Shown: one piece after another, positions 12,351 through 63,722 of the stretch | How the letters are laid out: each line of letters starts with the position of its first letter | How positions within the stretch are numbered: position 1 is the first letter of the stretch | Origin: an uncultured Candidatus Saccharibacteria bacterium | GTDB taxonomy: Bacteria > Patescibacteriota > Minisyncoccia > Phycocordibacterales > 2-02-FULL-43-11 | DNA: 64,000 nt | Direction: 5' to 3' | Assembly: GCA_964348785.1 (NCBI GenBank) | Contig: CAYGDO010000001.1 | Span: 21,724-85,723 of the forward strand | Translations under genes and position numbers: made by a program | The notes under the pieces: generated by a model | What the model saw: only the letters and a program-made list of their open reading frames with translations | What the model was told of the DNA's origin: nothing | The model's database searches: none

Positions 12351-12466
12351 ATTATTTTTTTATCCAATTTTTTGACAAATTAAGAATCCGACACCTGCCA
12401 TTAAATCCTTTATTATCAATGTATTATAACAATTTTCCGCTTATTCACATCAATATATTAAATACC

Positions 12467-12495
12467 ATTGACACTATTAAATTGACGTGGTAATT
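12467..12495 (+). promoter_or_regulatory. sigma70-like promoter TTGACA-N17-TAATTT driving GC-rich cassette gene 1 (contains internal TTGAC direct repeat)
   Basis: cattgacactattaaattgacgtggtaattta; near-identical copy at 13287-13315. Confidence 0.55.
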
Positions 12496-12541
12496 TACTC
12501 TCTAACTTGCCCAACGCGGGCGAGAGTACACCAAGAATCAA

Positions 12542-13159
12542 ATGAGCACACAGGCAAAAACCCCGGAAACCCCGACTCCCAACGCCAAACCCGAACCGCC
12601 GAAGGCCTCCGTGCCTCCGCCGCTACCGAAGCCGTCACTCGAGCAGGTCTTCACGACCCGCCTCGACGCGATCTTCGCAGGCCAGCGGACCCCCGAAGCG
12701 GAGCTGTTCGAGCCCCTCGAAAGGCTCGACCCCAGAAAGCACGAGATCATCGGGATCGTCACCGACCAGAAGAGCCGGGAGCTCTTCTCCCTGGCCCGGC
12801 GACTGGAGGAAGAGCAGAAAGGTGTCCCTCTGGCCCGCAAGCCCGGACAAATCCCCCAACACGAGACCGATGTCGCGACGATCAACAATCAGCGCAAAAC
12901 GGTCTTGAGCCTCTTCTGGCATCATGCCAAAGCAACGGGCATCAAGGCGGGAACGCCCACCGACATGTCGATTGGGATCGTGCAGGGATGGAAACTGGTC
13001 ATTGCTCCCAGTGAGGGAGAAGTCCTCGGTGGACTCGTCGAAATCATGGGCATGGGGCTTCCTCCCGGGCTCCTCGACCACCTCCGTCGCGGTCAAGACG
13101 GTGATCCCGGCGACGACCGCCGGCCCAGCAGGGGCTTCGGTAGCCCCGAAGGCGACTAA
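12542..13159 (+). CDS. GC-rich Pro-rich hypothetical protein, paralogue 1 of tandem cassette
   Basis: 205 aa; shares RLDAIFAGQRTPEAELFEP / DQKSRELFSLARRLEEE block with paralogue 2 (RLAAIFTGATTPKEDLFEP / DQRSRELYSLAQLLKEE); flanked by promoter and terminator on + strand. Confidence 0.55.
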   Translation: MSTQAKTPETPTPNAKPEPPKASVPPPLPKPSLEQVFTTRLDAIFAGQRTPEAELFEPLERLDPRKHEIIGIVTDQKSRELFSLARRLEEEQKGVPLARKPGQIPQHETDVATINNQRKTVLSLFWHHAKATGIKAGTPTDMSIGIVQGWKLVIAPSEGEVLGGLVEIMGMGLPPGLLDHLRRGQDGDPGDDRRPSRGFGSPEGD

Positions 13160-13188
13160 ACCCGCCTCGCTCACCTCGACCCCCTCAC

Positions 13189-13222
13189 GCGCAGCGTCCT
13201 CCCTGGACACTGCGCTTTTTTT
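13189..13222 (+). terminator. rho-independent terminator (GCGCAGCGTCC-TCCC-TGGACACTGCGC + T7)
   Basis: hairpin plus U-run; near-identical copy at 14147-14180. Confidence 0.7.
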
Positions 13223-13286
13223 ATTCAAAATTTTAAATACCCTTCAAAATATTTTTTACTCATTATAATCTCCATATTTTCCATCA

Positions 13287-13315
13287 TTGACACTATCAAA
13301 TTGACGTGGTAATTT
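13287..13315 (+). promoter_or_regulatory. second copy of cassette promoter TTGACA-N17-TAATTT
   Basis: catcattgacactatcaaattgacgtggtaattta. Confidence 0.55.
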
Positions 13316-13376
13316 ATTTTCACTTGGCCAATGGTGGTCAAGAGTACACACAAGAACCAAATCATCAGGCAAAACC

Positions 13377-14114
13377 ATGAATCCTCAACACGAGACACCG
13401 CCCGACAGCGCCAGTGCCGTCCCGAACGAAGTGCCCCCGCCGACCGAAGGCGAGCAACAACAGGGACTTCCTCCTGTGATCGGCCCGGAACTCACCGCCG
13501 CACCGCCCGAACCCCAGGTCGCCGCTGAAGGAAACGATGCACCCCCGACCACGAAACCGGCGCCGGAGACTCAGCCGGCACCCTCGCTGGCGTGGGTCTT
13601 CATGAATCGCCTGGCCGCGATCTTCACGGGAGCAACCACCCCGAAAGAGGACCTGTTCGAGCCGATCCAGGACTACGGCTTCGACCGAATCGACGGACTT
13701 GAATTCGCCGGCGTCATCCACGACCAGCGGAGCCGGGAGCTCTACTCCCTCGCACAGCTCCTCAAGGAAGAACGGGGCTCCCTCCGTCAACCCCGCAAGT
13801 CGAAAGAGGTCAAAGACCACGACCTGCGGAGTGCGATTCTCCAGGAGCAAGAGAAACTCGCCATGGCACTCTTCGTCCAAGCGGTCAAAGCCGAACTGCC
13901 GAAGGCCGACGTTAACGACCTCACTATCGCTGTGTTCGAGGACTGGCGAGTCGGCGTCGCAAGGCAAGACAATCAGGATGGTGGTTTCCAGTCCCGTCTC
14001 GCCGAGGCCATCGGCCTTCCGCCGGAGCTCATCGCCCATCTCAGTCGCCGTTCGCGCGACGAAGACCCCCACGCTCGCGAAGAGCGACTCTACCCCGGTG
14101 GCGGACGCGGTTGA
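13377..14114 (+). CDS. GC-rich Pro-rich hypothetical protein, paralogue 2 of tandem cassette
   Basis: 245 aa; paralogous to 12542-13159 at protein level with synonymous-type nucleotide divergence. Confidence 0.55.
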   Translation: MNPQHETPPDSASAVPNEVPPPTEGEQQQGLPPVIGPELTAAPPEPQVAAEGNDAPPTTKPAPETQPAPSLAWVFMNRLAAIFTGATTPKEDLFEPIQDYGFDRIDGLEFAGVIHDQRSRELYSLAQLLKEERGSLRQPRKSKEVKDHDLRSAILQEQEKLAMALFVQAVKAELPKADVNDLTIAVFEDWRVGVARQDNQDGGFQSRLAEAIGLPPELIAHLSRRSRDEDPHAREERLYPGGGRG

Positions 14115-24865: not shown

Positions 24866-26347
24866 CTAAGATAATTTCCGAACAATTCCCTTATCAGCAT
24901 CAACTTCTATTATATCGCCATCTTTCAAAACTTTAGTAGCAATTTTAGTGCCAATAATACAAGTTTTATTTAATTCTCGACTGACGATCGCTGCGTGGCA
25001 AGTAATACCACCTTCATCAGTCACAATTGCACCTGACCTTTTCATAAGCGGAACAAATTCTGGCCTTGTCATACCAGTAACCAATATATCACCGTCTTTA
25101 AAATGTCCACCGAGTTCTGCATCAAGAATAATTCGTGCGATACCACGCACCTTACCCTTACAAGCAATCTGTCCTTTTATGATGTTTTCAACAGCCGGCT
25201 GTTCCAATTTAATATGATGCTCATTAATTTCTTTTTTTATTTCAACAAAATTATCATAATTAATTTTTATATCACCGTTAAACAACATATATATTATGTA
25301 ACCATCCGCCCTTTTTTCAATTTCTTTTTTAATAGATTTTATAAACTCAACACCTTTTGTAAGTTCCACAGTTGGCAAGACAAATCCAATATATTTTGGA
25401 TCAATACTTGCCTCTTTAAATATCCTTTCGGCTATACGCCAATTTACAGTTAAAACTTTAGCGAAAAAGTTTTTACGACGATCACGCACACGCATTACAG
25501 TCTGACAATAATCAGCAATGACTTTTTCTTCATCTAATAATTCTTTATACCACTTATTATATTCTTCAAGATTTTTTTTCTCATTAAAAAGAATCTCTTG
25601 CCTTTTATTTTCTGCATCAACTGTGTTTATGTCTCCGTATTTACTCATTAAACGTTTCCGAACTTCTGGCAACAATTGCACATCCCTGTAAGTTGCATAA
25701 AAGAATTGGCAATCTTCAGCTATCTCGGAAATCGTTTTACCTTGCGCAAGTAATGACAACCCAAAATATTCTTGCTCTCCGTCAAAAGATCTAAATATAG
25801 GCACCGTGGCTTTTTCCCATAATTTATCTAAATTTTCTTTTGTGATTGGATACTTTTTAGAAGAAAGAACGTTTGCGCACAATTCTTTATCAAAATAAAG
25901 CGAAAAATATAAAGATGAGTTAGAAATGTGAATTAAGTCAAAAGCTTTTTGTATCAATGGGTAAAGCACCTCTATGTTTTCATTCTTTATACGTTCATAT
26001 GTATATTCTTTATATATTTCATCAACCTGTCTTTCATTTTTGAGAAAATTATCTTCAAGATTTTTTGTAAAAAAACGATCATCCAAATAACGATTAAAAC
26101 CCTCTATTGAGTCATTAACAATTGGGTTCGTAGGTAAATATACCGTCAAGCTTTCTCCGTCATTTATATTTAACGCGGAATAATTAAAATGTTTCGTATA
26201 CGGTGTAAGTTTAAAATATTTCTCAGTATTAAATCCTGAACTAAAATAAAAAAGCCCGCAATTATTCATGGGCCATATTTTACCGGTACCCACATCCCCT
26301 AAAAAACCTTCTAAAATCTGTTGTTCTGTATTTCTTGAAATCATCAA
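24866..26347 (-). CDS. PEP-utilising-enzyme mobile (phosphohistidine swivel) domain protein with novel N-terminal domain (paralogue G)
   Basis: 493 aa; C-terminus [46 protein letters not shown] matches PEP-utilizers mobile domain with catalytic His. Confidence 0.7.
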
Positions 26348-27527: not shown

Positions 27528-27702
27528 AAATTAATTAGCGAGATAAAGCCTAAAAACATGGCACATTCACTCTACACCACAAGAGTACTCCCAAATTTCT
27601 AACTCTTAAATCTCATAAGAAATTTTGGTCGCTGAGCTCAGTATTCCCTCACTCACGTTCGGTTGCTGAACGCTTGGTATGAAGTGGAAACCTATTTCGA
27701 TT

Positions 27703-28074
27703 CTAAATCGGAAACTTTTTAGCATCATAATACTCTCTAAGCGAGCTAAACTTTCCATTTCTGTAAGTAAAAATGCCAACTTCTTTCATCTTTATCCTTA
27801 TTTGTCTGACAACATCAGTAAACTCTGCCTGCCATTCTGCAATAACAGTTTCCTTATCAATCCAAATATTCTGTAAATTAAATTTTATATCCGATTGCCC
27901 CTTAACAACTTTTTCTTGCCAATATTTTTTTATAGCTTGTTTCCCAATATTAATCGGCTCATGCGGATCATCATAAGTGGCATCCTCAGTAAATATTGTG
28001 GTTATTAAATCTGAATCGCGGTCCACCCAAGCTTTACCATAAACATCTAAAAGTTTTTTTATCTGAATTTCCAT
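27703..28074 (-). CDS. SnoaL/NTF2-like fold protein
   Basis: 123 aa; LLDVYGKAWVDRDSDLITTIFTEDATYDDP pattern. Confidence 0.5.
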   Translation of the reverse strand: MEIQIKKLLDVYGKAWVDRDSDLITTIFTEDATYDDPHEPINIGKQAIKKYWQEKVVKGQSDIKFNLQNIWIDKETVIAEWQAEFTDVVRQIRIKMKEVGIFTYRNGKFSSLREYYDAKKFPI

Positions 28075-28088
28075 CCATTAATTATAGC

Positions 28089-28109
28089 TTACAAACTGGG
28101 GGACTTGGA
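28089..28109 (-). repeat. 21-nt direct copy of tRNA-Gln 3' end (TTACAAACTGGGGGACTTGGA), about 180 bp downstream of the tRNA
   Basis: identical to 28271-28291. Confidence 0.8.
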
Positions 28110-28277
28110 ACGTGATTACACTTCTCGACTTCGACTCAAAGTTCGCCGTCTCTCACTTTGGTCTAGTCACCAGCTCGTCCGTTTCTTTTACTAAAGAAAC
28201 ATGACTCCGCTGTTCGAGTCCAAGTCGTAAGCAAAGCAGTTTACTTACTTCCCCACAGTTTTTCACTGCGTTACAAA

Positions 28278-28348
28278 CTGGGGGACTTGGACTCGAACCA
28301 AGATACTAGGCTTCAAAGGCCCATGTCCTACCATTAGACGATCCCCCA
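28278..28348 (-). tRNA. tRNA-Gln (anticodon TTG)
   Basis: Reverse strand folds as cloverleaf: acceptor TGGGGGA/TCCCCCA, D arm GTCT..GGAC, anticodon stem TGGGC/GCCTA with loop CTTTGAA, T arm CTTGG-TTCGAGT-CCAAG, discriminator G; CCA not encoded. Confidence 0.8.
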
Positions 28349-28577
28349 ATATTTAAAACTCAATCCTATACATTCAATCTTCACATTCGCCCTTCTGGGC
28401 TCAGTACTCCTTCGTTCTCACTCGGTCGCTGGGCTCAGTGTTTCCTCACACCACAAGGGCACTTCCAATTTCATAGTCGCTTCACTCCTTGAAATTTAGG
28501 TCGCTCTCGCTCGGTCATAAAATACCTTTTTTTGGTTAAAATTTCAACCCGATTTCTTATATTTGATATTTAATTTT

Positions 28578-50186: not shown

Positions 50187-50672
50187 TCAAATCTCACCGA
50201 AAAGTCGGTGGACAGAGATAACCCGTTCATAGTAAAACCTTGCATCTCTAGGCCACCGACGCATCATCTGACATTCTTCAAGGTAGGCCGTCCTAATAAT
50301 AAAAAAGTAGTAGGCTCCCGCGATGAGGAGTGCAAGGGCAGAATGATCGTAAGCAAGAAACACCAAATCAGCGACGATGTACGATGCGTAGGCGGGATGG
50401 GCGACAAACCGAAACGGTCCGTCCACTTTTAGCCTGAGGGCCCCCTGAACCATTTGTCGTGATAGGGAAAACAACACCCAACCGACAAACAAGATCCAAA
50501 GGACGATACCGACCTTGAGGAAAACGATGTGTTCCTGGGGCGCCTTCGCCCACAGAAAACGGTACGAAAACCAGTACCGGACGACCGCCAAGGCCATCAT
50601 CAGATACCAGTTGAAGTTGGAACGAAAAGACAAAGAGCTTGTATTCATGACTCGCGAGAAATTAACACTCAA
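50187..50672 (-). CDS. isoprenylcysteine carboxyl methyltransferase (ICMT/PEMT)-family membrane methyltransferase
   Basis: 161 aa; GPFRFVAHPAYASYIV motif. Confidence 0.6.
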   Translation of the reverse strand: MSVNFSRVMNTSSLSFRSNFNWYLMMALAVVRYWFSYRFLWAKAPQEHIVFLKVGIVLWILFVGWVLFSLSRQMVQGALRLKVDGPFRFVAHPAYASYIVADLVFLAYDHSALALLIAGAYYFFIIRTAYLEECQMMRRWPRDARFYYERVISVHRLFGEI

Positions 50673-50743
50673 TTATTGATATGTCAAACATTTATACCCG
50701 GTCTTGAATAATCAAAAATTTTAGAATAAACTATCCCCTACTT

Positions 50744-50827
50744 GCCGCGGTGGCGGAATTGGCAGACGCACGGGACTCAAAATCCCGCGATCGCGAGGTC
50801 ATGAGGGTTCAACTCCCTCCCGCGGCA
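50744..50827 (+). tRNA. tRNA-Leu (anticodon CAA)
   Basis: GCCGCGG acceptor, anticodon stem CGGGA/TCCCG with loop CTCAAAA, long variable arm, T arm GAGGGTTCAACTCCCTC, discriminator A. Confidence 0.8.
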
Positions 50828-50940
50828 TCAATCCTTACCTAGCTTTCAAAGAAAGCGTCAGGTGGGAGTTGAAGCCTTGTTGAGAAATTTTATAAGCGTA
50901 GCGAAATAAAATATCCAACAAGGGGACTGAAACTGTAAGT

Positions 50941-50960
50941 TTCAACTCCCTCCCGCGGCA
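50941..50960 (+). repeat. 20-nt direct copy of tRNA-Leu 3' end (TTCAACTCCCTCCCGCGGCA), about 110 bp downstream of the tRNA
   Basis: identical to 50808-50827. Confidence 0.8.
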
Positions 50961-51080
50961 CAAAACAAAGAAGTCTGATGTAACACATCAGCGACTATTA
51001 TTTTGTAGTACGCAAATTTGAGTTAAAAGACGGAGGCATTTTTATGATATTATAAAAACAATATAATTTTATAAAAATCT

Positions 51081-52178
51081 ATGGAACAAAATCTAGATAC
51101 CAATTCGTCAGAAAATTTTAAAACAACCACCACAACAAAAAGAAACCTTTTATGGCCCGTTGTGATATTAATAACAATTATCGCAATAGGATCAATAGGA
51201 TGTTTTATTTATTTAAAAAAATCCCCTGAAACAATAGCCACATCCAACCAAAACGCAAAAATTTCCTGGAAATACAATCCTTCAAAATTAATTTTCAACT
51301 TACCACAGAAAAATAATAATTCTACTATCAATATTGCCGCTATGTGTCTAAATGGAACAGATTGTAAAGACACTATCAATTCTAAACAAGAAAACCCGAG
51401 CTACTATACCTGCACTTCGGATAAACAATGTTCTTTTTTCAATGGATTCACTGGAGTAAAAAGTAAAAATGAACAACCCCTAAACAATGTCCCAGGGGAA
51501 ACAAGAAGAGCTGTTTCTGCATCAAATCAAAAACCAGGCGAAGGTACTACGATTACGGAACCTGCCCTACCAAAACAAAGCGCTGGTTCCTCAGAATGTT
51601 TCAATAAAGAAGAGCTAATAAAAAACGCGCTTAATAAAAACGAATTAAAAGAAGACCTTTCTATACAATGTGAGTGTGGAATCAAACCTCCAACAAATTC
51701 AGTTACCGCTTCTCCAAGTATAATAAATGCCGAAACAGGAGAAACTACACCCGGAACTATTTCAAATATTAAAAATAAAGCCGAAGATTTATGGGTTTGC
51801 ATGCAACCAGAGGCACGCCCAGATATTATGACTGATAATTTTATATTTCCTCAAAATATTGGCGTCAATGAACCCTTCTCAATTTCTTTTAATTACAAAA
51901 ATGTTGGAACAAAAGAATGTCTAGAAAGTTATTTTCAAGCTGATGTAACTAGAAAAACAGATAACAAAATAGAAAATCTGGGCTCAATCGGCGCACATTT
52001 ACTTTATGCAATACCTCTTAGTCCAAATAAAAATGAATCTTTTGTATTTGGTCATCAATTACTTCCAAAATTTGATATTGCCGGAGACTATCAATTAGAT
52101 ATTACAATGTTCTGCGAATTACCATTAGAAACACACATGATAAACGGCTTAAAAGAAATACATATTAAAGTAAATTAA
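51081..52178 (+). CDS. membrane-anchored extracellular hypothetical protein
   Basis: 365 aa, N-terminal TM, Cys-containing ectodomain. Confidence 0.5.
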   Translation: MEQNLDTNSSENFKTTTTTKRNLLWPVVILITIIAIGSIGCFIYLKKSPETIATSNQNAKISWKYNPSKLIFNLPQKNNNSTINIAAMCLNGTDCKDTINSKQENPSYYTCTSDKQCSFFNGFTGVKSKNEQPLNNVPGETRRAVSASNQKPGEGTTITEPALPKQSAGSSECFNKEELIKNALNKNELKEDLSIQCECGIKPPTNSVTASPSIINAETGETTPGTISNIKNKAEDLWVCMQPEARPDIMTDNFIFPQNIGVNEPFSISFNYKNVGTKECLESYFQADVTRKTDNKIENLGSIGAHLLYAIPLSPNKNESFVFGHQLLPKFDIAGDYQLDITMFCELPLETHMINGLKEIHIKVN

Positions 52179-54440: not shown

Positions 54441-55727
54441 TTAACTACTTTTTATAATTTTTACTACACCCTTCTCCGCATCAACCTCTACCAAATCACC
54501 ATCTTTAAGAACTTTCGTGGCAATTTTGGTACCAATGATACAAGGCTTTTTCATTTCTCTAGCGACAATCGCAGCGTGAGAAGTTATCCCTCCTTCATCC
54601 GTGATAAAAGCTGAGGCTTTATTCATACCAATAATATACGAGGGCGCAGTAGTTGGAGCAACCAAAATATCTCCTTCTTTTACTTTTTCAATTTCATAAG
54701 CAGTCATTACAATTTTCACCGTCCCCCTTAAAACACCCTTATACGCAATTGCACCTTTTAACTCTTTAACATCGGCATAATCAGAAATAGCTAAAATCGG
54801 GCCTTCAAACAAAACTTGCTCCTCACCCATACCTACACAAGATACATTTTTATAAAACTTTAATTCACCAGAAATTAAACTATCGAAATCATACCACTTC
54901 AAATCTTCGAATTTAATTTTATATAAACTAGCGACCTCCTTTAAAATAGGCCTTAATCTATACATAAATTCCCAAAGGACATCCGTCCTAAATGTCCTGA
55001 AATAGACTAATTCTTGAGTGGCGACCACTAGATCTGATAATTCATCTGGTACATTCGGTCGATTAAATTTTTCTGTTATCCCATCTTTTTTAAGCCTTTG
55101 CCTTTCGGATGATAATTCCTCAATACTGTAAGGTTCGCCAAAGCCATCCCTTATTTTTATCCAGCCAAATTCTTGTTGAATTTTCTCCAAATCATCATCC
55201 CCCAAAAGAGCTTCTAAAAAATATGAATGCTTATTTTTCTTAACAGGATAACTAACATCACCAATAAATTTATTTATATCGCCTTGATAATATTTTGGTA
55301 TCTCTAATTTTAATTTATTTAAGTATAAATGTTCGAAAGCGTGTGTTAGCCAGGTATAAGCTATATTTTCACGAATCAATTTTCTAATTTCCATTAATTT
55401 ATCAGGGACCCGATCAGATGAATCTAAAATAGATTTTACCCTTTTTTTACCACTCTCATAAAATTTTTCACAATTACTTACAACCTCAAACAAATCAATT
55501 TTATTTTTGATTAATAAATCAACCTGTATATCCAAGACCTTGAGTGATTTATAAAAAGCACCGTTTTGAAATAAAAAAGCTTTTTGTTCCCAGTTTAAAC
55601 CAATTGTTTTAAAAGTCTGATAGCCATTTGCCATAAGAGAAAGCACAAAAGCTCCAAATGGACGATCCGCCCAATGTTCCCAATCATTGTAATCTAAAAC
55701 TTTCTTTTTTATTTCCTCTTTTGTCAT
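54441..55727 (-). CDS. PEP-utilising phosphohistidine swivel-domain protein, paralogue A (no ATP-grasp domain)
   Basis: 428 aa; C-terminus [46 protein letters not shown]. Confidence 0.7.
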   Translation of the reverse strand: MTKEEIKKKVLDYNDWEHWADRPFGAFVLSLMANGYQTFKTIGLNWEQKAFLFQNGAFYKSLKVLDIQVDLLIKNKIDLFEVVSNCEKFYESGKKRVKSILDSSDRVPDKLMEIRKLIRENIAYTWLTHAFEHLYLNKLKLEIPKYYQGDINKFIGDVSYPVKKNKHSYFLEALLGDDDLEKIQQEFGWIKIRDGFGEPYSIEELSSERQRLKKDGITEKFNRPNVPDELSDLVVATQELVYFRTFRTDVLWEFMYRLRPILKEVASLYKIKFEDLKWYDFDSLISGELKFYKNVSCVGMGEEQVLFEGPILAISDYADVKELKGAIAYKGVLRGTVKIVMTAYEIEKVKEGDILVAPTTAPSYIIGMNKASAFITDEGGITSHAAIVAREMKKPCIIGTKIATKVLKDGDLVEVDAEKGVVKIIKSS

Positions 55728-57175
55728 TTATTTAAAATCCTAACAACTCCACTGTTTGCGTCAACCTCCACCAAATCCCCGTCTTTAAGAACTTTCGTAG
55801 CAATTTTAGTGCCAATGATACAGGGTTTATGCATTTCGCGAGCCATGATGGCAGCATGGCAAGTAATCCCCCCTTCATCAGTAACAAATGCTACAGCTTT
55901 TTCTAAAGCAGGCATAAATGATGGAATAGTCATTGGAGCAACAACCACATCTCCTTTTTGGACTTTAACATTATCTGCGTCAGTTTTAAGAATTTTTACA
56001 ACCCCAGTTGCAAATCCTTTGTACGCAATTTTTCCCTTTAGTTCCTTTTGGTCATCATTTTGTCTTTTCAAAAAAGAATGGTTTTCGATAAATTTTTCAA
56101 CCTCACCCCCTTCCAAAACTACCGGTTCACCTAATCCGTAATAAATCAAAAAATTCTTTTTTCTTTCTTCAATATTTTTTTTATAATCTAATTTTCCTCG
56201 TAAAGCCAAAACTATTTCAGGAACACATAAATTGAGCATATTGTTGTAAGAAACATTAAGCACAAAGGCCACCTTAGACAGCAAAGGTCTAATGTGATAA
56301 CCCGATTCATGAAAGAAATCAGCGCGTTGATTCCTGACAAAAATTATTTCTCTAATTTTATCAACTATTTTTTTATCATCTACACTAAAATTTTTTGTTA
56401 AAACTTTAATTTTTTCTTCTTTTTCGAGTCGTTTATTCAATCTTTTTTCTAATTCTTTTTTTGCTTCTTCTTTAGAAATATTGTTAAGTCTATTCAATAC
56501 ATCCTCAGTCCTCCACGGCTCACCCAAGAAAAATCTCAAAGAAATCCAACCATATTTTTTAGCATGTTTACTGGCCAGTTCTTCTTTATTTAAAACATCA
56601 CTCGAAGCCAAAATTAAAAAATCTTTCTGTTCTTCTTCAACAACAGTATCTTTATTTGATACTGAAATGGCACTTAGTAATTCTTCAAACTCCTTTTCAT
56701 CTTTTGAATATTTTTTAACAAGACTCTTTGCAATATCAGTGGTCGGACCTTCAAATTGAGTTATGTTGTAAAAAACCGTGTACTTTATTTCTGTATCAAA
56801 AAACTCTTCCATCAACCTTGCTAATTCCTCATGATCTTCAATAAACAATGATTTTGCCGATAATTCCTTACATCTTTCCTGTAACTCATTGCCGAAAACC
56901 ATACATTTTTTAACCAACTCACTGACATAATCTAAGCCCTTAGAAGAAAATTTAAATTTTATTTCTTCTTCCTGCTTTTTTAAATCATTAATAAATTGAT
57001 AGAAAAAATAATTAACTTGTAACCATCTAACCAAAGTGTCTAAATCAAAAATTTCCTTTGTGGCTCTTTTATCCAACATTCCCCCAATTAAAAGATGGGA
57101 AATCATATAAGGCTCGATTCTCTCTCCAAAATAAACAATGTCCTCCTTTTTTAAATTTTCCAACTCTTTTGTCAT
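55724..57175 (-). CDS. PEP-utilising swivel-domain protein, paralogue B
   Basis: 483 aa; C-terminus [46 protein letters not shown]; 4-nt overlap with A. Confidence 0.7.
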   Translation of the reverse strand: MTKELENLKKEDIVYFGERIEPYMISHLLIGGMLDKRATKEIFDLDTLVRWLQVNYFFYQFINDLKKQEEEIKFKFSSKGLDYVSELVKKCMVFGNELQERCKELSAKSLFIEDHEELARLMEEFFDTEIKYTVFYNITQFEGPTTDIAKSLVKKYSKDEKEFEELLSAISVSNKDTVVEEEQKDFLILASSDVLNKEELASKHAKKYGWISLRFFLGEPWRTEDVLNRLNNISKEEAKKELEKRLNKRLEKEEKIKVLTKNFSVDDKKIVDKIREIIFVRNQRADFFHESGYHIRPLLSKVAFVLNVSYNNMLNLCVPEIVLALRGKLDYKKNIEERKKNFLIYYGLGEPVVLEGGEVEKFIENHSFLKRQNDDQKELKGKIAYKGFATGVVKILKTDADNVKVQKGDVVVAPMTIPSFMPALEKAVAFVTDEGGITCHAAIMAREMHKPCIIGTKIATKVLKDGDLVEVDANSGVVRILNK

Positions 57176-58632
57176 TTATTTAAAATCCTAACAACTCCCT
57201 TCTCCGCATCAACTTCTACCAAATCGCCGTCTTTAAAAACGTCAGTGGCGTTATTTATACCTACAACACAAGGAATCCCTAATTCACGAGAAACAACGGA
57301 CACATGAGCAGTAATGCCTCCATCTTCAGCCACCACGCCAGAAGCCTGGATCAAAACTGGCATAAAATCCGGACTCGTATTGGCCGCTATTAAAATATCA
57401 CCCTTATTAAACTTCTTAAAATCTTCCCCAGACAATACAACCTTAGCTATTCCTTTTGCAAATCCTTTTGAGGCCACTCTGCCTTTAAATTCTTTCTTAC
57501 CAATATCCTTATTTATCAAAAACCTTTCTTCAAACTTTTTAGCATCTTTTCCTAAAAGAATATTCAATTTGTTAGGAACGGCAATAACAATATTATATTT
57601 CGATCTTTCTTTGACCAAACTTTCGTCAGGCATCTGTCCACCTAGCGCAAATTCGATTATCTCCCTAGGATGTAAATCTTTTATAAAACCTATCGAGACA
57701 TCCTTCCTCCTTGCCAATTCCCCAAACAAAGGTTCGGCATAATACTCCAGCTTGTTTATACAAGATTTGTAATAATCTTTAAGATATGTAGCGAAAGATG
57801 CAATTCTTGCCAATTCTTTACCCTTTTCATCAAGTGATTTAACTAAATTTTCATAAGTTTTTTTATCATCAACAATTTTTTTCAAAAAATTATTTCTCTT
57901 TTGCGTAGGATTATCTTTTAATAAACCATCCAGCGTATTTTTGTAATCATTATATTCTTTAGGCTTTTCATCAAAATAACCCATAACGCCCCAAGCATAT
58001 TTACCAACAATTTCCGCAATTTTTTCTTTAATAGATTGAGAATTTATATCTTCTTTTTTTTCAAAAATAGAGGATGCTAGGTTGAGCAAATCTAATTCTT
58101 CAGATACAGATAACGTTGGCTTAATGGGTTGGGCTAAATTTATAATTATCTGATCAACATCAGATTGATTTAAAAAATGTTCCCTAATCTTTTTAACAAC
58201 AACTCTATCCAAAATTCTTAAAGTGCCCGCCGTCACCATAAATTCCCAATAAAACGTAAAATAACTATCGAAGACTTCAGCCAAATCATCATCTGTTAAT
58301 TTATTTAAATCCTTCAAAAATATTTTCTTTACGCCTTGTTCCATCTTTTCGGTAAGATATTTTTCCATTTCTTCCAATAACCCTTTATCTTTCCAAAAAC
58401 GATCAAAAACTTTTTGAAAATCTTCGTCGCTTAAAACAAAAATCCATTTTACATAGTGTTCGTTCATTAAAGAAATAATAAAACCTGTATGGGGCCAAAT
58501 TGTATGTATCTGTGAATATTGTGTAGTTATTAAATAGCATGGGTAAAAATAAGAAACACGGCCACCTTCTGAGTAAAGCTGTTTATTTTCAAAAATATTC
58601 CAATCAATTTTTTCATCTCCTTCAAAATTCAT
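57172..58632 (-). CDS. PEP-utilising swivel-domain protein, paralogue C
   Basis: 486 aa; C-terminus EDGGITAHVSVVSRELGIPCVVGINNATDVFKDGDLVEVDAEKGVV. Confidence 0.7.
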   Translation of the reverse strand: MNFEGDEKIDWNIFENKQLYSEGGRVSYFYPCYLITTQYSQIHTIWPHTGFIISLMNEHYVKWIFVLSDEDFQKVFDRFWKDKGLLEEMEKYLTEKMEQGVKKIFLKDLNKLTDDDLAEVFDSYFTFYWEFMVTAGTLRILDRVVVKKIREHFLNQSDVDQIIINLAQPIKPTLSVSEELDLLNLASSIFEKKEDINSQSIKEKIAEIVGKYAWGVMGYFDEKPKEYNDYKNTLDGLLKDNPTQKRNNFLKKIVDDKKTYENLVKSLDEKGKELARIASFATYLKDYYKSCINKLEYYAEPLFGELARRKDVSIGFIKDLHPREIIEFALGGQMPDESLVKERSKYNIVIAVPNKLNILLGKDAKKFEERFLINKDIGKKEFKGRVASKGFAKGIAKVVLSGEDFKKFNKGDILIAANTSPDFMPVLIQASGVVAEDGGITAHVSVVSRELGIPCVVGINNATDVFKDGDLVEVDAEKGVVRILNK

Positions 58633-58645
58633 AAAATTTACTTAA

Positions 58646-60040
58646 TTACAATGAATTGTTTTTAAGAATTGTGACCACACCCCTCTCCGCATCAACTTCC
58701 ACCACGTCACCGTCCTTAAGAACTTTAGTGGCGATTTTGGTGCCAATGATACATGGCTTTTTCATTTCCCGTGCAACAATAGCGGCATGAGAACTTATGC
58801 CCCCTTCATCAGTCACAAATGCCCCGGCAATTTTCATAAAAGGTAAAAATTCTGGTCTGGTCATGCTTGTAACTAAAATCTCTCCTTCTTCCATTTTTTT
58901 AGCATCTTCAGAGTGTGGATTCAAAATAACTCTCACTCTTCCTTTAACTAATCCCTTACAAGCCACAGAGCCTTTCAAATCAATATTTTTAGACTCTTGA
59001 GTATTTAAAACCTGTTCAACCATTTTCCAACATTTTTGACCTTCTTCAGAAAAATAATAATTATACTCTCCGTCTTCTGTCATGTGAACAAAAAAGCCTT
59101 CCTCTATTCTCTTTTTCAAATCATTTTCAGCTACAGTAGCAAAAAATAATTCCTCTACTCTATCAGGAATAAGACCGTTTAATAATTTTAAATCAATTTT
59201 CTGTCTTTTAGCTACCTCCCTTAAAATTTTCAACATTCCAAACAAACCAACGTAATTCAGTCTTTTTCTTTCATCACGCCATTTGGTTAATAAAACAAAT
59301 ACATCATATGGATTTTTATCAAGACCATATTTCTTTAAAATTAACTTCTTGTCAGGAGCTTCGATAATTTTTGATTCATCTAATTTTTGTAATTCAAGAT
59401 CAATAAAACCATCATCCACTTCAACAAAAGAAGAATAGTCTATTCCGTACCAGAAAAAAAGTTTCTTTAATTCATCTCTTGTTATTATCCCATTCTTTAA
59501 GTCAGACAATTTCTTATCCCATAAAGTAATAAATGATGGCTCATCTGGAATAAGAAGACTTTGTTTTTCTTCAATACCAAATTTATAGTTATTAGAAATC
59601 TTTTCTATCTCTTCGTGATCAATCCCTATATCAAAAGAATCTATAAAAATTCCACATGCCCACATTTCAAGATCCTTCTTATAAATTTCGTTATATCTTT
59701 TTATAAGATCTTCAATGTCTATAGAAGATAAATCAGTTTTGTATATTTCATACGATAGTAGTGTTAACTCTTTATCTAAAATATTCCAATCTTTTAGCCA
59801 ATCATCTACCCCTCCATCCTCAAATTTATTTAAAAAAGATTCTGATACTTTTCTCCATTGATCTTCATAAAAAGCAGCCCATAGATAATTATTTTTATAA
59901 AACAAAAAACCCTCACCCCAACTAAAAGGGAGATACTTCTGCATCATCTTACCTGCCGTCATGTACGGTAAAATAACTTGAAAGGCCCCGCATTTTCCTT
60001 CTTGTTTATAAAGTTTTCTATTGGGGTCTATTTTTATCAT
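58646..60040 (-). CDS. PEP-utilising swivel-domain protein, paralogue D
   Basis: 464 aa; C-terminus [46 protein letters not shown]. Confidence 0.7.
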   Translation of the reverse strand: MIKIDPNRKLYKQEGKCGAFQVILPYMTAGKMMQKYLPFSWGEGFLFYKNNYLWAAFYEDQWRKVSESFLNKFEDGGVDDWLKDWNILDKELTLLSYEIYKTDLSSIDIEDLIKRYNEIYKKDLEMWACGIFIDSFDIGIDHEEIEKISNNYKFGIEEKQSLLIPDEPSFITLWDKKLSDLKNGIITRDELKKLFFWYGIDYSSFVEVDDGFIDLELQKLDESKIIEAPDKKLILKKYGLDKNPYDVFVLLTKWRDERKRLNYVGLFGMLKILREVAKRQKIDLKLLNGLIPDRVEELFFATVAENDLKKRIEEGFFVHMTEDGEYNYYFSEEGQKCWKMVEQVLNTQESKNIDLKGSVACKGLVKGRVRVILNPHSEDAKKMEEGEILVTSMTRPEFLPFMKIAGAFVTDEGGISSHAAIVAREMKKPCIIGTKIATKVLKDGDVVEVDAERGVVTILKNNSL

Positions 60041-60073
60041 TTTTCATTTAGCAGACAAAGTCTTAATCAGTCT

Positions 60074-61573
60074 TTAATCTTCTTCGTATCTTTTAATAAT
60101 CTTTACAACACCTTCATTTACATTAACTTCTACCAAATCCCCATCTTTCAAAACTTTCGTGGCAATTTTCGTGCCGATAATGCAGGGAATTCCCAACTCT
60201 CTTGAAATAATCGCTGCGTGGCAAGCAATACCGCCTTCGTTTGTAATAATCGCTTTTGCTTTTCTCATTAATGGCACGAACTCAATTCTGGTCATTGATG
60301 TAACCAGAATCTCTCCGTCTTCAAAAATATCCTTGGAGGGATCAAGTACTACTCTGACTTTTCCTGAGAAATTACTTACACCTCCTCTACTTGCAACTTG
60401 TCCTTTTACAAAACCCTCGAATTTAAAAGCTGTCGCTACTGAAAAAAGCTCCTTGGCTTCGCCATCATAGAATATTTTCGCATTTTGTCCTTTTTCCCAT
60501 ACCATAAAAACTCCCGCTTTTCTTCTTCTTATCTCTTCCACATTTAATTTATATTCACTTTCTAAACATTTACCGAACTCATCAAAAGTATAAACCGCTA
60601 AATCCTCATAAGGAATATTGGATACTTTAGCAGTATGATCCATAGTCATTGCCAAGTAATAAAAAAATCTCATCATTCCGATTTTTCTTAAATCAATCCA
60701 CTGAATAACAAGTTTCGCAAAAGCTAAATCTCTTTTATCTATTTCGGTTAGCTCTATTGTACCCAGAATTTTTTTACGATTTTCATGTAAGACATCAAAA
60801 TTTTGTCTATTTTTTTCTATTTCCAATTCAATGCCCTCTTTTTTATTCTTAGAAATTTCAACGTAAACTTCTTTTAGAATTTTTTCCGGAGTAGTTTCTT
60901 CAGCCTTATAAAAATCACTTCGGAACCAAAAATACTTATCAATGTAACTTTTAATATTTTCTTTAAGAATTTTTCCAGAGGATACTTCAATGCAAATCCT
61001 CAAGAAATCCTCTCTTTCAAGATTGAAAACGGTTGGTTCTTCCGGATGTGCCAAAGTATTAAATATCTCATCTGCCTTATTAATTTCTAAATTATGACGT
61101 TTGGCAAAATGAGGAACTATTTCCTTATTTATAATAGCCCCCTTATCCTCCCAAAGAGAACAATAATGAAACCACTCTCCTGAAAGAATCGAAAATTTTT
61201 TATAAAAATCAAAAATTTTCTCTTTTGAATAAGTCGCGCCATTTTTAAAATATTCTTCCCAAGCTTTTTCTATCTCCTTTTCCAAAAAAATCTGACGTTC
61301 TATCATTTTATCTGCGCTCTTTGGATCACGTAAATAATCGTCGTATACTTTTTTAGCAATATCCTCAATTATCTTCTTAGCATTAAATTGATGGAACGAA
61401 CCCATCTTATCAAAAGAGAAAAAAGCGAAACCTGGACTGTATAGAACACCATGAAGCGAATCAGATTCTGTGTAAGACTTGAAAGCCATATCAAGCGCCA
61501 CCAAAGAGACGCCGGCAATAGCATTATCTAACTCATTATTTTTGAGATAGTTTATTATTTCGCCTTTTGTCAT
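60074..61573 (-). CDS. PEP-utilising swivel-domain protein, paralogue E
   Basis: 499 aa; C-terminus [46 protein letters not shown]. Confidence 0.7.
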   Translation of the reverse strand: MTKGEIINYLKNNELDNAIAGVSLVALDMAFKSYTESDSLHGVLYSPGFAFFSFDKMGSFHQFNAKKIIEDIAKKVYDDYLRDPKSADKMIERQIFLEKEIEKAWEEYFKNGATYSKEKIFDFYKKFSILSGEWFHYCSLWEDKGAIINKEIVPHFAKRHNLEINKADEIFNTLAHPEEPTVFNLEREDFLRICIEVSSGKILKENIKSYIDKYFWFRSDFYKAEETTPEKILKEVYVEISKNKKEGIELEIEKNRQNFDVLHENRKKILGTIELTEIDKRDLAFAKLVIQWIDLRKIGMMRFFYYLAMTMDHTAKVSNIPYEDLAVYTFDEFGKCLESEYKLNVEEIRRRKAGVFMVWEKGQNAKIFYDGEAKELFSVATAFKFEGFVKGQVASRGGVSNFSGKVRVVLDPSKDIFEDGEILVTSMTRIEFVPLMRKAKAIITNEGGIACHAAIISRELGIPCIIGTKIATKVLKDGDLVEVNVNEGVVKIIKRYEED

Positions 61574-61670
61574 AAGTTATTTTTTAGAATTGTGACTACC
61601 CCCTCTCCGCATCCATCCCAGTAGCAAAAATCAGAATTTCGCTACGGGACAAGCCTCCACCAATATATCA

Positions 61671-63722
61671 TTACTTACCCACTCTTTTAATTATTTTGAC
61701 AATGCCCTCGTTTGCATTAACTTCGACCTCATCACCGTCTTTCAAAACCTTCGTAGCAATTTTGGTGCCGATAATGCAAGGAATTCCTAATTCTCTAGAA
61801 ACTATTGCTGCATGAGATATTATTCCTCCCTCATCAGTTATGATTGCCCCAGCTTTTTTACAAGCCAATATCATTTCAGGGCCAGTAGAGCCCGCCACCA
61901 ACACTTCACCCTCCTTCATCATTTCTATTTCCGTCTTAAAATCAGTATCTGCGCTAAACATTATCTTTTTAACTTTCCCTTTATAAATTCCTTTATGTGC
62001 GACATTTCCCTTAAAACTCTCTAAATCTTTATCAACTTCTAAAAACTGCTTATAAAGAATTTCTGCTTCTTCACCCACGACATCTTCACCATTAGAAAAC
62101 AAGCCACGAACAATTGCGCCAGATCTTTTCGAAACTGAGATTTTGCGTCCACGTAACATTTCCACCAGTTCAGTGTATTTATAGTCCTCCACAGACAATT
62201 CAAGTGTAAGGCGTCTGGAAATTTCATCTAAAAAGGGCTTGAGAATATTAGGATCATACATTGTAAAATTAAGAAGTTTACGATATTCAAATTTTAATTC
62301 ACCAGCTTGTTTCAATTTTTTCTCTAAAGCAGGGTCTTTTTGCAACTTTGCAGCCACCAAATCTAAACTGTGATATTCCAAAGGAAAATAATTACGCCAC
62401 ATCTCTATAGACAAGATGGCTGATTTTTCCAAGAACTCTGCCAGTTCTTCATTCGAAAGCTTTTCCGTTTTTATCGTCAGTAATTCACTTATACTTTTTT
62501 CAAATTTCACCATCTTCTGTCTTAAGTCTGTCGTAAACTCTTCATATCTCTTAATAAATAAATTTAAACCTTCCTCCCCGAGTCTCTCGTGTTCAACCTT
62601 ACTAACAAAAAGACTGTTCGAACGCTCTTTGATAAAGAGGATAAAATCCTTATCTGCATAACCCGAATAGAAATGAGCGTCAGAAAAAATATACGGCACA
62701 CCAAACGTCCAAAGAAAATCATAATCTTTTACACTAGGAAAATTTTTAGGCTTTTCTTCTAAAATATCAATTTTCTTAGACAAAGTCGTAATTGGTCTCG
62801 ACTGAACAATATAGAATTTACCAGCCTCGTATGCCCATTCAATATCGCAAGGAAAACCATAGTGCTTTTCTATGCCGAGAATAATTTCCGACAATTCCAA
62901 AATTTGCTTTTCGCTTAATTTTTGCTTTTCGCCCTCAACGGCGGAAATATCTCTCCATTCATTTCCACCACCTACTTTCCTGAATAAGCCACGTTCCTGA
63001 ACGGAAATGTTTGAGTCAATAATTCTTCTTGGTTCTTTTTCTACAACATAAGAATCTGGCGTAATCTGTCCAGACACAATCGCTTCGCCAAGACCAAACC
63101 CGGCTTCAATAATCATCTGATTATAATCCTCTGTTACAGGGTGAACAGAAAAAGCGATTCCAGACACTTCGGATTCAACCATTTTTTGCACCACCACTGC
63201 CACAGAAATTTTTGTTTTATGTAAATCTTTTTCAAAACGATAAAAAATAGCACGAGGAGTAAACAAAGACGCCCAACACTTCCTCACATTTTTCAAAAGA
63301 TCAGACTCTTCTGTATTCAAAAAACTATCAAGTTGCCCTGCCCAAGCAGCAGAACTAGAATCTTCTGCCGTAGCAGAAGACCGAACAGCGACAAACCTAG
63401 CGCCTAACGCCTTAAAACCTTTCCTAATTTCCTCTCTAATATCTTCAGGCATTTCTTTTGCCAAAATCAAAGATTGAATTTGTTCTGATGCGTTTTCAAC
63501 TGTATGCATTTCAGCATGTTTTACCTTGTGAAGGATTGAATCTATTTCAATATTTAAATCTGTTTCTTCGCAAAATCTTTCAAAAGCACCAGCAAGAACA
63601 ACAAAACCCGGTGGAACCGGAATCCCCGCATTGGTCATTTCTCCAAGCGACGCACCTTTTCCTCCCGCAATTTCTGCATCATTTTTCGAAAGCTCTTTGA
63701 ATTCCTTGGTGAATTTTTGCAT
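61671..63722 (-). CDS. PEP synthase/rifampicin-phosphotransferase-like enzyme: N-terminal PEP/pyruvate-binding ATP-grasp domain (PPDK_N-like) + middle domain + C-terminal swivel domain, paralogue F
   Basis: 683 aa; N-terminus EIAGGKGASLGEMTNAGIPVPPGFVV... (PPDK_N), C-terminus [46 protein letters not shown]. Confidence 0.75.
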   Translation of the reverse strand: MQKFTKEFKELSKNDAEIAGGKGASLGEMTNAGIPVPPGFVVLAGAFERFCEETDLNIEIDSILHKVKHAEMHTVENASEQIQSLILAKEMPEDIREEIRKGFKALGARFVAVRSSATAEDSSSAAWAGQLDSFLNTEESDLLKNVRKCWASLFTPRAIFYRFEKDLHKTKISVAVVVQKMVESEVSGIAFSVHPVTEDYNQMIIEAGFGLGEAIVSGQITPDSYVVEKEPRRIIDSNISVQERGLFRKVGGGNEWRDISAVEGEKQKLSEKQILELSEIILGIEKHYGFPCDIEWAYEAGKFYIVQSRPITTLSKKIDILEEKPKNFPSVKDYDFLWTFGVPYIFSDAHFYSGYADKDFILFIKERSNSLFVSKVEHERLGEEGLNLFIKRYEEFTTDLRQKMVKFEKSISELLTIKTEKLSNEELAEFLEKSAILSIEMWRNYFPLEYHSLDLVAAKLQKDPALEKKLKQAGELKFEYRKLLNFTMYDPNILKPFLDEISRRLTLELSVEDYKYTELVEMLRGRKISVSKRSGAIVRGLFSNGEDVVGEEAEILYKQFLEVDKDLESFKGNVAHKGIYKGKVKKIMFSADTDFKTEIEMMKEGEVLVAGSTGPEMILACKKAGAIITDEGGIISHAAIVSRELGIPCIIGTKIATKVLKDGDEVEVNANEGIVKIIKRVGK

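Follow-up and report, generated by a model that had tools for sequence, protein, structure and literature searches.

The tRNA-Leu locus

The window, i.e., the whole 64-kb stretch of DNA analyzed here, has a GC content of about 35% and belongs to a metagenome contig of 222,561 bp (ENA ERZ27247837, k141_1278861) that carries chromosomal genes (topA, relA/spoT, parB, dnaX, serS, and clpB). The best named relatives of its ParB and DnaX are found among Patescibacteria/Paceibacteria, such as Taylorbacteria, Kaiserbacteria, and Yonathbacteria. Two tRNA genes, tRNA-Leu(CAA) and tRNA-Gln(TTG), are present in the window, and both are followed by the same layout: a short segment, here called a module or unit, which contains an inverted copy of a part of the T-arm and which ends with a direct copy of the tRNA 3' end. 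The parts of the tRNA-Leu locus are listed below.

50744 to 50827, + strand: complete tRNA-Leu(CAA) gene, encoded CCA absent (ARAGORN; Rfam RF00005, 57.3 bits)
50808 to 50827, + strand: copy 1 of a 20-nt repeat, the proposed target (exact-match scan)
50828 to 50960, + strand: proposed Leu-type insert unit of 133 bp (limits by analogy with the 182-bp Gln-type unit)
50828 to 50839, + strand: TCAATCCTTACC, a degenerate third copy of the 3' part of the T-arm (fold prediction)
50841 to 50856, + strand: small hairpin AGCTTTC-AAA-GAAAGC (fold prediction)
50861 to 50877, + strand: inverted T-arm copy, 15/17 positions, with an exact 10-nt core at 50864 to 50873
50875 to 50923, + strand: central hairpin CCTTGTTG...CAACAAGG with the loop AAGCGTAGCGAA (fold prediction)
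50921 to 50934, + strand: second partial inverted copy, AGGGGACTGAAACT, pairing with 50938 to 50951
50941 to 50960, + strand: copy 2 of the 20-nt repeat, exact, the 3' terminus of the Leu insert (exact-match scan)
50973 to 50995, + strand: hairpin GTCTGATGT-AACA-CATCAGCGAC followed by a T-rich run, outside the insert (read by eye in the sequence)

The limits of the tRNA gene given by ARAGORN and Rfam are 50743/4 to 50827/9 on the + strand. Its last 20 nt, TTCAACTCCCTCCCGCGGCA, span the T-loop, the 3' strand of the T-stem, the 3' strand of the acceptor stem, and the discriminator. An exact downstream copy of this stretch, as reported in an earlier note on this DNA, was recovered: the sequence occurs exactly twice in the 64-kb window (50808 to 50827 and 50941 to 50960), and a third match with up to three mismatches was found neither in the window nor in any of 100 shuffles. 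The proposed insert begins with the base directly after the tRNA end, and its last bases are the tRNA-3'-end copy. The inverted T-arm piece described in the same note is likewise real and somewhat longer than claimed. GGGAGTTGAA (50864 to 50873) is the exact reverse complement of TTCAACTCCC, which covers the T-loop and the 3' strand of the T-stem. In the longer segment 50861 to 50877, 15 of 17 positions agree, with a score of 26 against a 95% null value of 22.

The region folds more stably than its shuffled versions (z = -4.3). The earlier note had predicted a long hairpin held together by two helices, one between the inverted piece and the downstream copy and the other between CCTTGTTG (50875 to 50882) and CAACAAGG (50916 to 50923). 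This structure can indeed form (-42.4 kcal/mol), but it is a minor one that accounts for about 9% of the ensemble, the minimum free energy (MFE) being -44.4 kcal/mol. In the MFE structure, the inverted piece pairs instead with 50828 to 50839, which is seen in about 80% of the ensemble, and the downstream repeat pairs with the partial inverted copy at 50921 to 50934. Nor does a long hairpin with a tRNA-like tail hold as a general feature of the layout, given that the inverted piece at tRNA-Gln and tRNA-Tyr complements the T-loop, which is missing from the downstream repeat there.

The hairpin at 50973 to 50995 may be the original terminator of tRNA-Leu; a scan for consensus terminators left it uncalled on the + strand, and a search for intrinsic terminators in the Leu module returned zero + strand calls across 50600 to 51120. 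The tRNA-Leu gene is followed by a 365-aa ORF, homologues of which lie in variable, toxin-antitoxin-rich regions of other genomes.

The tRNA-Gln locus and recurrence at other tRNA genes

The layout at tRNA-Gln lies on the opposite strand and contains additional parts, listed here.

28278 to 28348, - strand: tRNA-Gln(TTG) gene (ARAGORN; Rfam)
28089 to 28277, - strand: insert unit of the Gln type, about 182-189 bp long (139.9 bits with covariance model R1)
28250 to 28261, - strand: AAACTG(T)GGGGA, acceptor 3' strand and trailer in inverted copy, providing the 5' strand of helix P1
28227 to 28248, - strand: hairpin 1 (GT..AC in the window, AC..GT in contig L042)
28212 to 28226, - strand: GACTTGGACTCGAAC, perfect 15-nt inverted copy of the T-loop and the T-stem 3' strand; 5' strand of helix P2
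28112 to 28212, - strand: hairpins A (28171 to 28212), B (28126 to 28169), and C (28112 to 28121), with conserved purine-rich loops and the motif CGAGAAGTGTAATCAC
28089 to 28109, - strand: copy 2 of the tRNA-Gln 3' end, together with 7 trailer bases, with which the unit terminates on its 3' side

The direct repeat at tRNA-Gln is exact over 21 nt (28291 to 28271 and 28109 to 28089), and the unit is orthologous to those found in contigs L042 and L038. An intrinsic-terminator scan of the Gln module gave a single call, on the - strand, at a position inside hairpin A and the inverted piece. No sequence is common to the Leu and Gln inserts, neither has further copies in the window, and no ORF is found inside the Leu (133 bp) or the Gln (182 bp) segment. 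In both cases, the genes downstream of the module run in the same direction.

The earlier note had suggested that the layout is systematic and had proposed a survey of the tRNA genes. Extension of the contig by 10 kb on each side of the window, giving 82 kb read in total, added two more tRNAs, tRNA-Tyr and tRNA-Trp. The layout is seen at tRNA-Tyr, 6 kb past the window end, with an 11-nt inverted T-arm copy and a copy of the 3' end (13/14) about 170 nt downstream, and it is lacking at the tRNA-Trp of the contig. Three of the four tRNAs readable on the contig thus have the layout, vs. 1 of 34 tRNAs in other candidate-phyla loci, the sole case being a tRNA-Met gene in another Patescibacteria genome (L015; 10 nt inverted, 18 nt direct). 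Recurrence beyond the two original loci, at Tyr in this genome and Met in another, supports the suggestion. In the 82 kb of contig, additional degenerate copies of the 3' ends of tRNA-Leu, tRNA-Tyr, and tRNA-Gln do not exceed chance. A transposase or recombinase gene was not seen in these 82 kb, nor was an integrase domain in the neighboring genes tested.

Several routes were followed in order to find relatives of the Leu locus, and none of them yielded one. Relatives identified through ParB synteny are 74-91% identical and have no tRNA near ParB, with the synteny breaking at the ParB start. Homologues of the 365-aa ORF are not syntenic and sit among toxin-antitoxin and Abi genes elsewhere. 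A scan of GTDB with the 25-mer from the 3' end of tRNA-Leu returned 23 loci, none of which carries the Leu module, and a metagenome scan with the pattern GGCGAAN{8,22}CGAGAAGTGTANTCAC gave two chance matches in a coding region. Viral contigs scanned for the repeats and the module motifs yielded 0 matches, and no match was obtained in phage records.

A structured family at tRNA-Gln and tRNA-Tyr

The Gln and Tyr inserts are homologous and can be aligned over their whole length, which includes about 100 nt of non-tRNA sequence. From 5' to 3', the unit consists of an inverted acceptor strand (P1), hairpin 1, an inverted T-arm (P2), hairpins A, B, and C, and the tRNA-3'-end copy, and this terminal copy provides the 3' strand of both P2 and P1. 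Through P1 and P2, the repeat becomes part of a helix about 12 bp long that resembles the stack of acceptor and T-stem. Hairpins are found close to both ends of the Gln-type unit. The loops of hairpins A, B, and C are purine-rich and conserved, with the motif CGAGAAGTGTAnTCAC, and the loops and junctions of the module are conserved between the Gln and Tyr paralogues.

Structural conservation was evaluated on five sequences (Gln, Tyr, and orthologous Gln copies), four of which are close to each other. These support seven helices in which 96.6% of cells are paired. Compensatory changes, in which both partners of a pair differ, were counted at 20 of 53 pairs, compared with 4.1 +/- 1.8 in shuffles (0 of 500 reach 20) and with 1-5 such pairs in controls with slid partners. 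An example is the change from AGTC/GGAC to AATC/GGAT in L038. The fold contains 16 G.U cells and zero A.C cells, and the MFE of the tRNA-sense strand is better than that of the antisense strand by 8-11 kcal/mol in all five copies. The Gln/Tyr fold is therefore assigned to the tRNA-sense strand, and the pattern of substitutions shows that the Gln-type hairpins are under selection on that strand.

The tRNA-matching segments of the Gln/Tyr modules are paired with each other in every predicted fold. When tRNA-Gln and its module are folded at full length, the anti-target segments pair with the T-arm and acceptor of the tRNA in the MFE structure (-101.8 vs. -90.8 kcal/mol), the acceptor stem is built from the downstream copy, and the first copy is sequestered. 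The full-length MFE structures at Met, Leu, and Tyr make the same pairing choice.

No Rfam match was found for the modules; only the two tRNAs pass, and scans of both loci at E <= 10 revealed nothing credible. Covariance models of the Gln/Tyr type, applied to about 370 kb of loci, recovered no copies other than those at tRNA-Gln and tRNA-Tyr and at a single additional site. Even if read conservatively, the Gln/Tyr type, with its strong covariation and its absence from Rfam, is a family of structured nucleic acids that is new. The Gln/Tyr covariance model does not detect the Leu and Met modules, even with filters off, and the Leu module is therefore linked to this family by its layout and not by demonstrated homology.

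Strain comparison and a filled/empty pair

Contigs with mutually identical DnaX, which is 94% identical to the DnaX of the window, diverge directly after tRNA-Gln. The module is present in L042 and L038 (identical DnaX) and absent in L039 and L041 (identical DnaX) as well as in L046 (near-identical DnaX). In the latter three, the ...CCCCCAG of tRNA-Gln runs straight into unrelated DNA. In L041 and L046, this DNA opens with an ORF that resembles a serine recombinase and runs antisense to the tRNA over its last 19 codons; it is the sole recombinase near a tRNA-Gln and occurs in module-less strains. The DNA beyond the downstream repeat also differs among the window, L042, and L038, and synteny between the window and L038 is not regained until about 11 kb farther along the window. 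Given that no two contigs have a common downstream flank at tRNA-Gln, this locus alone gives no clean empty site, and presence or absence of the module here is confounded with island replacement. The flank of tRNA-Gln is a hot spot of strain-variable DNA. Identity between the window and L042 is 95.7% for the module, 85% for the adjacent dnaX DNA, and about 60% for the tRNA leader.

A clean comparison is provided by a second complete copy in L038 (module 2; 12849 to 13030, 182 bp, 133.6 bits), located 1.4 kb downstream of module 1, from which it is separated by a PIN_12 gene and a ddl fragment. After removal of these 182 bp, the flanks of module 2 align without interruption to the following part of the window, with a score of 77 against a null maximum of 30.

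27640 to 27726, - strand: unoccupied look-alike target ...CCAAGCGTTCAG/CAACCGAACG (the slash marks the junction, between 27666 and 27665)

Because the L038 flanks are continuous in the window once module 2 is taken out, the window holds the empty site, between 27666 and 27665. The filled junction in L038 reads ...CATACCAAGCGTTCAG/TAACCGAACG and the empty one in the window ...CATACCAAGCGTTCAG/CAACCGAACG, and a target duplication is absent beyond the CAG common to both junctions. The left flank of the look-alike site resembles the tRNA-Gln 3' end more closely than 98.7% of random genomic 15-mers do (p ~0.013). A decayed tRNA-Gln was considered for the left flank of module 2 and rejected, its best alignment not exceeding shuffles (p = 0.35).

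The look-alike site keeps its own left-flank sequence and the tRNA copy is supplied by the unit, from which it follows that insertion takes place after the target and not within it. Insertion of the Gln-type unit occurs en bloc, directly 3' of the target or of a sequence that resembles it, and its "direct repeat" is best read as the element's own terminus, which matches the target, not as a target duplication or an att scar; both statements come from one filled/empty pair, obtained from a metagenome assembly and of the Gln type only. The presence/absence among strains and the clean copy at a non-tRNA site lead us to conclude that, for the Gln type at least, the unit is discrete and mobile. The limits of this 182-bp unit, which served as the model for those of the Leu unit, are set by the same pair. 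Altogether, a tie between the layout and DNA insertion at tRNA 3' ends is supported.

Proposed explanation for the Leu segment

We contend, with a probability of roughly 60%, that 50828 to 50960 is a non-autonomous insertion element, devoid of genes, of a kind that homes to one particular tRNA gene at its 3' end. Its membership of the same class as the Gln-type unit is inferred from common architecture; the features that fit are two inverted T-arm copies (one of them good, the other partial), a terminus that is an exact copy of the target, and the 365-aa ORF that follows, with its homologues in variable regions of other genomes. Each element of the class would start right after the last tRNA base and end with a 14-21-nt copy of the tRNA 3' end, and would hold one or two reverse-complement segments of the T-loop, T-stem, and acceptor 3' strand in addition to further hairpins. 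The tRNA stays intact because the unit begins after its last base.

As to how such an element may work, it would move as, or be read as, a single strand (DNA or RNA), and its internal anti-target segment could pair either with the end of the tRNA gene or with the element's own 3' end. This two-state pairing would set both points of cleavage and joining, and the chemistry would presumably be carried out by a recombinase or transposase acting in trans. The working logic may resemble that of IS200/IS605 guide and cleavage sites, or that of folded single-stranded att sites (integron attC, CTX-phage attP), which offer a recombinase a duplex (PMC5027507, PMC4246890). The predicted empty Leu site reads ...CCCGCGGCA/CAAAACAAAGAAGTC (also written ...CCCGCGGCA/CAAAACAAAG and ...CTCCCTCCCGCGGCA/CAAAACAAAGAAGTC), and the predicted junctions of a head-to-tail circle are ...CCCGCGGCA/TCAATCCTTACC for Leu (...GCGGCA/TCAATCC) and ...CCCCCAG/TTTGTAACGCAG for Gln.

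A more far-reaching proposal, which we put forward tentatively and with distinctly less confidence, is that the elements form a novel class of miniature homing elements in which an anti-target segment of 10-26 nt selects the target through base pairing. Here the anti-target on the folded strand would have two alternating partners, namely the sense strand exposed where a highly transcribed tRNA gene ends (3') and the identical 3' terminus of the element, whereby both junctions would be defined. The specificity could be rewritten for each tRNA (Leu, Gln, Tyr, and Met), and the element could seed cargo cassettes and islands behind the tRNA genes of reduced candidate-phyla genomes. Because one filled/empty pair, five covariation sequences, and 82 kb of contig form its basis, the mechanism is far less certain than the description.

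The genomes of candidate phyla (Patescibacteria) are tiny and are thought to be poor in mobile DNA. Despite this presumption, most of the tRNA genes sampled on the contig carry a structured mini-insert. If targeting by long base pairing is true, it would represent a compact, re-targetable insertion system, and the inserts would help explain how islands are seeded at tRNA genes.

Alternative explanations

Strand bias and G.U pairs in a fold are as compatible with RNA as with single-stranded DNA, and the module might be a cis-acting structured RNA of the host in the 3' trailer of the tRNA, co-transcribed with it, a function that would be compatible with mobility. The 3' strand of this RNA would copy the T-stem and acceptor strand of the tRNA, to which its 5' part would be antisense. 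It could, for instance, mimic the top half of a tRNA and have the transcript cleaved by attracting RNase P, RNase Z or the CCA-adding enzyme, or switch between two folds. A terminator or processing mimic of the tRNA 3' end, the other option of the earlier note, may be considered here as well; a terminator-like + strand site was not found in the module, and sister strains have no module at tRNA-Gln. Selection of the fold on the tRNA-sense strand, with its 16 G.U and zero A.C cells, agrees with such a role, as do the conserved loops and junctions of the Gln and Tyr paralogues, the conservation of the module above that of the adjacent dnaX, the acceptor/T-stem-like helix of about 12 bp formed by P1 and P2, the exchange of the acceptor stem for the downstream copy in the full-length MFE (-101.8 vs. 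-90.8 kcal/mol), and the position of both window modules ahead of co-directional genes. We nevertheless consider this explanation unlikely. A complete copy is a clean insertion at a non-tRNA site, sister strains have the same tRNA-Gln without an adjoining module, and the layout occurs in only 1 of 34 tRNAs of other candidate-phyla loci. Moreover, the Gln repeat of the window includes 7 trailer bases that lie outside the mature tRNA, an Rfam match is absent, and strand-biased G:T pairing along with purine skew is likewise shown by attC sites, which act as single-stranded DNA (PMC5027507).

The earlier note named, as one of its options, att scars left by repeated integrase events, and the modules could accordingly be inert, short remnants between attL and attR after internal deletions in islands that had entered the gene with a copy of the tRNA 3' end. 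Repeats that span from the T-loop to the tRNA 3' end are indeed a property of many tRNA-integrating elements (Islander, PMC4383910), and tycheposon islands are known to contain partial tRNA copies in arrays (10.1101/2020.12.28.424599). The hot spot of variable DNA at the tRNA-Gln flank and the serine-recombinase-like ORF that adjoins the same tRNA-Gln in other strains would also suit this origin. However, decaying remnants would not be expected to hold seven helices through 20 compensatory pairs or to outdo a neighboring gene in conservation, and convergence would not be expected to produce the same build of 130-190 bp at four tRNAs. Module 2 of L038 is a precise 182-bp insertion without a tRNA-derived repeat on its left (p = 0.35). 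Inert scars are thus unfit to explain the Gln/Tyr type, in which a discrete 182-bp unit carries its own copy of the tRNA end to a non-tRNA site with target duplication absent and in which hairpins are maintained by compensatory changes on one strand, and for the modules as a whole we judge a scar origin improbable. An even lower probability, of a few percent, is attached to local rearrangement without mobility, i.e., template switching at the quasi-palindrome of the T-arm during replication or repair, which would generate first an inverted and then a direct copy of the tRNA end, with the addition of filler DNA. The T-arm is a natural palindrome, and the inverted piece of the Gln/Tyr type perfectly complements the T-loop, for which the downstream repeat offers no partner, as copying from the tRNA would produce. 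What this process leaves unexplained is the homology of about 100 nt of non-tRNA sequence between Gln and Tyr, the copy at a non-tRNA site, and the conserved fold.

Comparison with known systems

The IS200/IS605 family uses guides of 4-5 nt and targets that are tetra- or pentanucleotides. Taken as non-autonomous insertion elements, the modules are similar to IS200/IS605 mini-elements (PATEs) in being small, gene-less, and equipped with strand-specific hairpins, and, for the Gln type only, in insertion 3' of the target without target duplication, just CAG being common to both junctions. A further likeness to IS200/IS605 would be the presence of internal guide bases able to pair both with the target alongside and with the end of the element itself. 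Unlike in that family, the complementarity of the modules extends over 10-26 nt and the target is a tRNA end. A similarity between left and right hairpins is not evident in the modules, which are at most putative PATEs; the subterminal hairpins of PATEs are related to those of an autonomous element that encodes a Y1 (HUH) transposase. No Y1_Tnp gene is present in the Pfam annotations of the loci examined, which include 82 kb of this genome.

Genomic islands at tRNA genes (Islander, tycheposons; PMC4383910, 10.1101/2020.12.28.424599) likewise have the 3' end of a tRNA gene as their target, a tRNA 3' copy that marks the far end of the insert, and tandem arrays with strain-variable cargo at the same tRNA. 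As in Islander elements, a repeat of a tRNA 3' fragment bounds the insert (Leu 20 nt exact, Gln 21 nt exact), but the modules are only 133-190 bp long, contain neither an integrase nor any other gene, and leave the tRNA unsplit, whereas islands split their target and then restore it. The modules further differ in keeping the tRNA copy as their own terminus even at a non-tRNA site, in their inverted target copies, and in a selected single-strand fold.

In attC sites of integrons, structure is conserved over sequence and folding is strand-biased with G:T pairs (PMC5027507, PMC3053210). The Gln/Tyr type is also an imperfect palindrome with conserved structure that folds on one strand, and it is located at the 3' end of a cargo unit in the L038 array. 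The core sites RYYYAAC/GTTRRRY are absent at Leu, Tyr, and Met, although most Gln junctions are G/TT. An integron integrase (IntI) or attI was not found in the loci examined, a tRNA gene stands at the head of the L038 array, and the target of the modules is a tRNA end rather than attI. The folding strand of the modules is co-directional with the upstream genes, whereas in attC it is the bottom strand that is used.

In the attP(+) of the CTX phage, two inverted target-like sites about 90 bp apart fold to imitate a duplex target (PMC4246890, PMC3442271). The order of target copy, spacer, inverted copy, body, and target copy is the same in the modules, and this layout is all that is common, as the inverted copies match a tRNA end and not dif, where CTX-type elements integrate in dependence on XerCD. 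No filamentous-phage genes are present beside the modules.

Other candidates were rejected on simple grounds. Terminal inverted repeats, which would identify a MITE, are lacking in the modules, as are other copies in the window. A retron is disfavored because there is no reverse transcriptase nearby; a group I or II intron would require a larger module and an Rfam match, which is also absent for tRNA-like elements, ribozymes, T-box, tmRNA, and Y RNA. An att site of a large serine recombinase was dismissed because a duplex site would not select hairpins.

Finally, the bridge RNA of IS110 (PMC11208160) is a structured non-coding segment of about 150-190 nt with direct and reverse-complement matches to its target, to which the modules show a resemblance in both respects. 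An adjacent DEDD recombinase gene or ORF is absent at the modules. Their matches overlap and pair together in helices, whereas the guides of IS110 lie in internal loops, and they measure 10-21 nt, compared with 4-7 nt in IS110.

Recombinase-like ORF at tRNA-Gln

Two comparison loci, L041 and L046, are without the Gln module (the gene-less insert behind tRNA-Gln that contains an inverted T-arm copy and terminates in a tRNA 3'-end copy) and instead carry the following feature at tRNA-Gln:

L041 3219-3824 and L046 8200-8923, - strand: serine-recombinase-like ORF, Zn_ribbon_recom (E = 3e-4)

The Zn_ribbon_recom part is followed by a long helical region, and the ORF terminates within tRNA-Gln. Its final 19 codons are the tRNA in antisense, which suggests an integrated element with its att core inside the recombinase gene, at the 3' end.

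Repeat ends, leader and dnaX flank of tRNA-Gln

In the window, the Gln repeat extends seven bases past the tRNA (TTTGTAA, at 28089-28095 and 28271-28277), and these are also bases 1-7 of the module. In L042, another locus carrying the Gln module, only TT beyond the tRNA is common to both copies. The seven extra bases could reflect a past head-to-tail junction, or a crossover that took place at another point.

The other side of the gene is occupied by a repeat-bearing leader:

28350-28577, - strand: tRNA-Gln leader with GA-rich repeated units

These units include ACCGARCGWGAGYGA and ACTGAGCCCAG..GGGCGAATGT, and their motif matches the window four times, where 0.22 matches would be expected. Compared with 229 nt in the window, the leader is 166 nt long in strains with 85% identity in the dnaX DNA, and leader identity is only about 60%. 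In L044 (DnaX 96% identical), additional leader-like repeats lie downstream of dnaX (1275-1640), a region from which tRNA-Gln is absent altogether; a terminator and rplU come next. One leader-type unit (27606-27665) also lies immediately right of the empty target site in the window.

Sequence behind other tRNA genes

Degenerate copies of the tRNA-Leu 3' end (AGGGCGACTCC(C)TCC..) are located 60-85 nt past the tRNA, preceded by a hairpin, in two Saccharibacteria MAGs (L020 3520-3600; L005 490-575, - strand), and the inverted T-arm piece is absent behind tRNA-Leu in both. In the Patescibacteria locus L015 (4600-4760, - strand), the 40 nt past the tRNA-Met module's downstream repeat resemble the module start (GTGCACAAAACC..TGTACAGTTGTGGG versus GTGGACAGAAGC..TGTACAGTGTTGCG). 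They may represent a tandem copy that is only partial, and a second tRNA-Met gene comes next. The 260 nt behind tRNA-Lys in L046 (about 2550-2816, - strand) are highly GC-rich in an AT-rich genome and contain the internal repeats CGAGCCGKAGCG and CCGCGAGGYGGG.

Synteny and other features of the window

Relative to the genomes with the closest ParB (87-91% identity), synteny ends precisely at the ParB start codon, about 50117, and other genes there replace the block of ICMT-like gene, tRNA-Leu, Leu module and 365-aa ORF.

Further features of the window are as follows:

12542-13159, + strand: ORF with no Pfam match
24866-26347: seventh copy of the genes in the six-gene array, 28 kb away from it
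54441-63722: tandem array of six paralogues that have the PEP-utilizers mobile domain

The GC content of the ORF is roughly 60%, as estimated from its sequence, against 35% for the genome, and the 2-kb interval 12001-14000 reaches 52%. Its promoter/leader (12466-12560) recurs before the next gene (13288-13380), and the ORF may be a recent foreign gene set under a duplicated local leader. The outermost of the six tandem genes has PPDK_N in addition.
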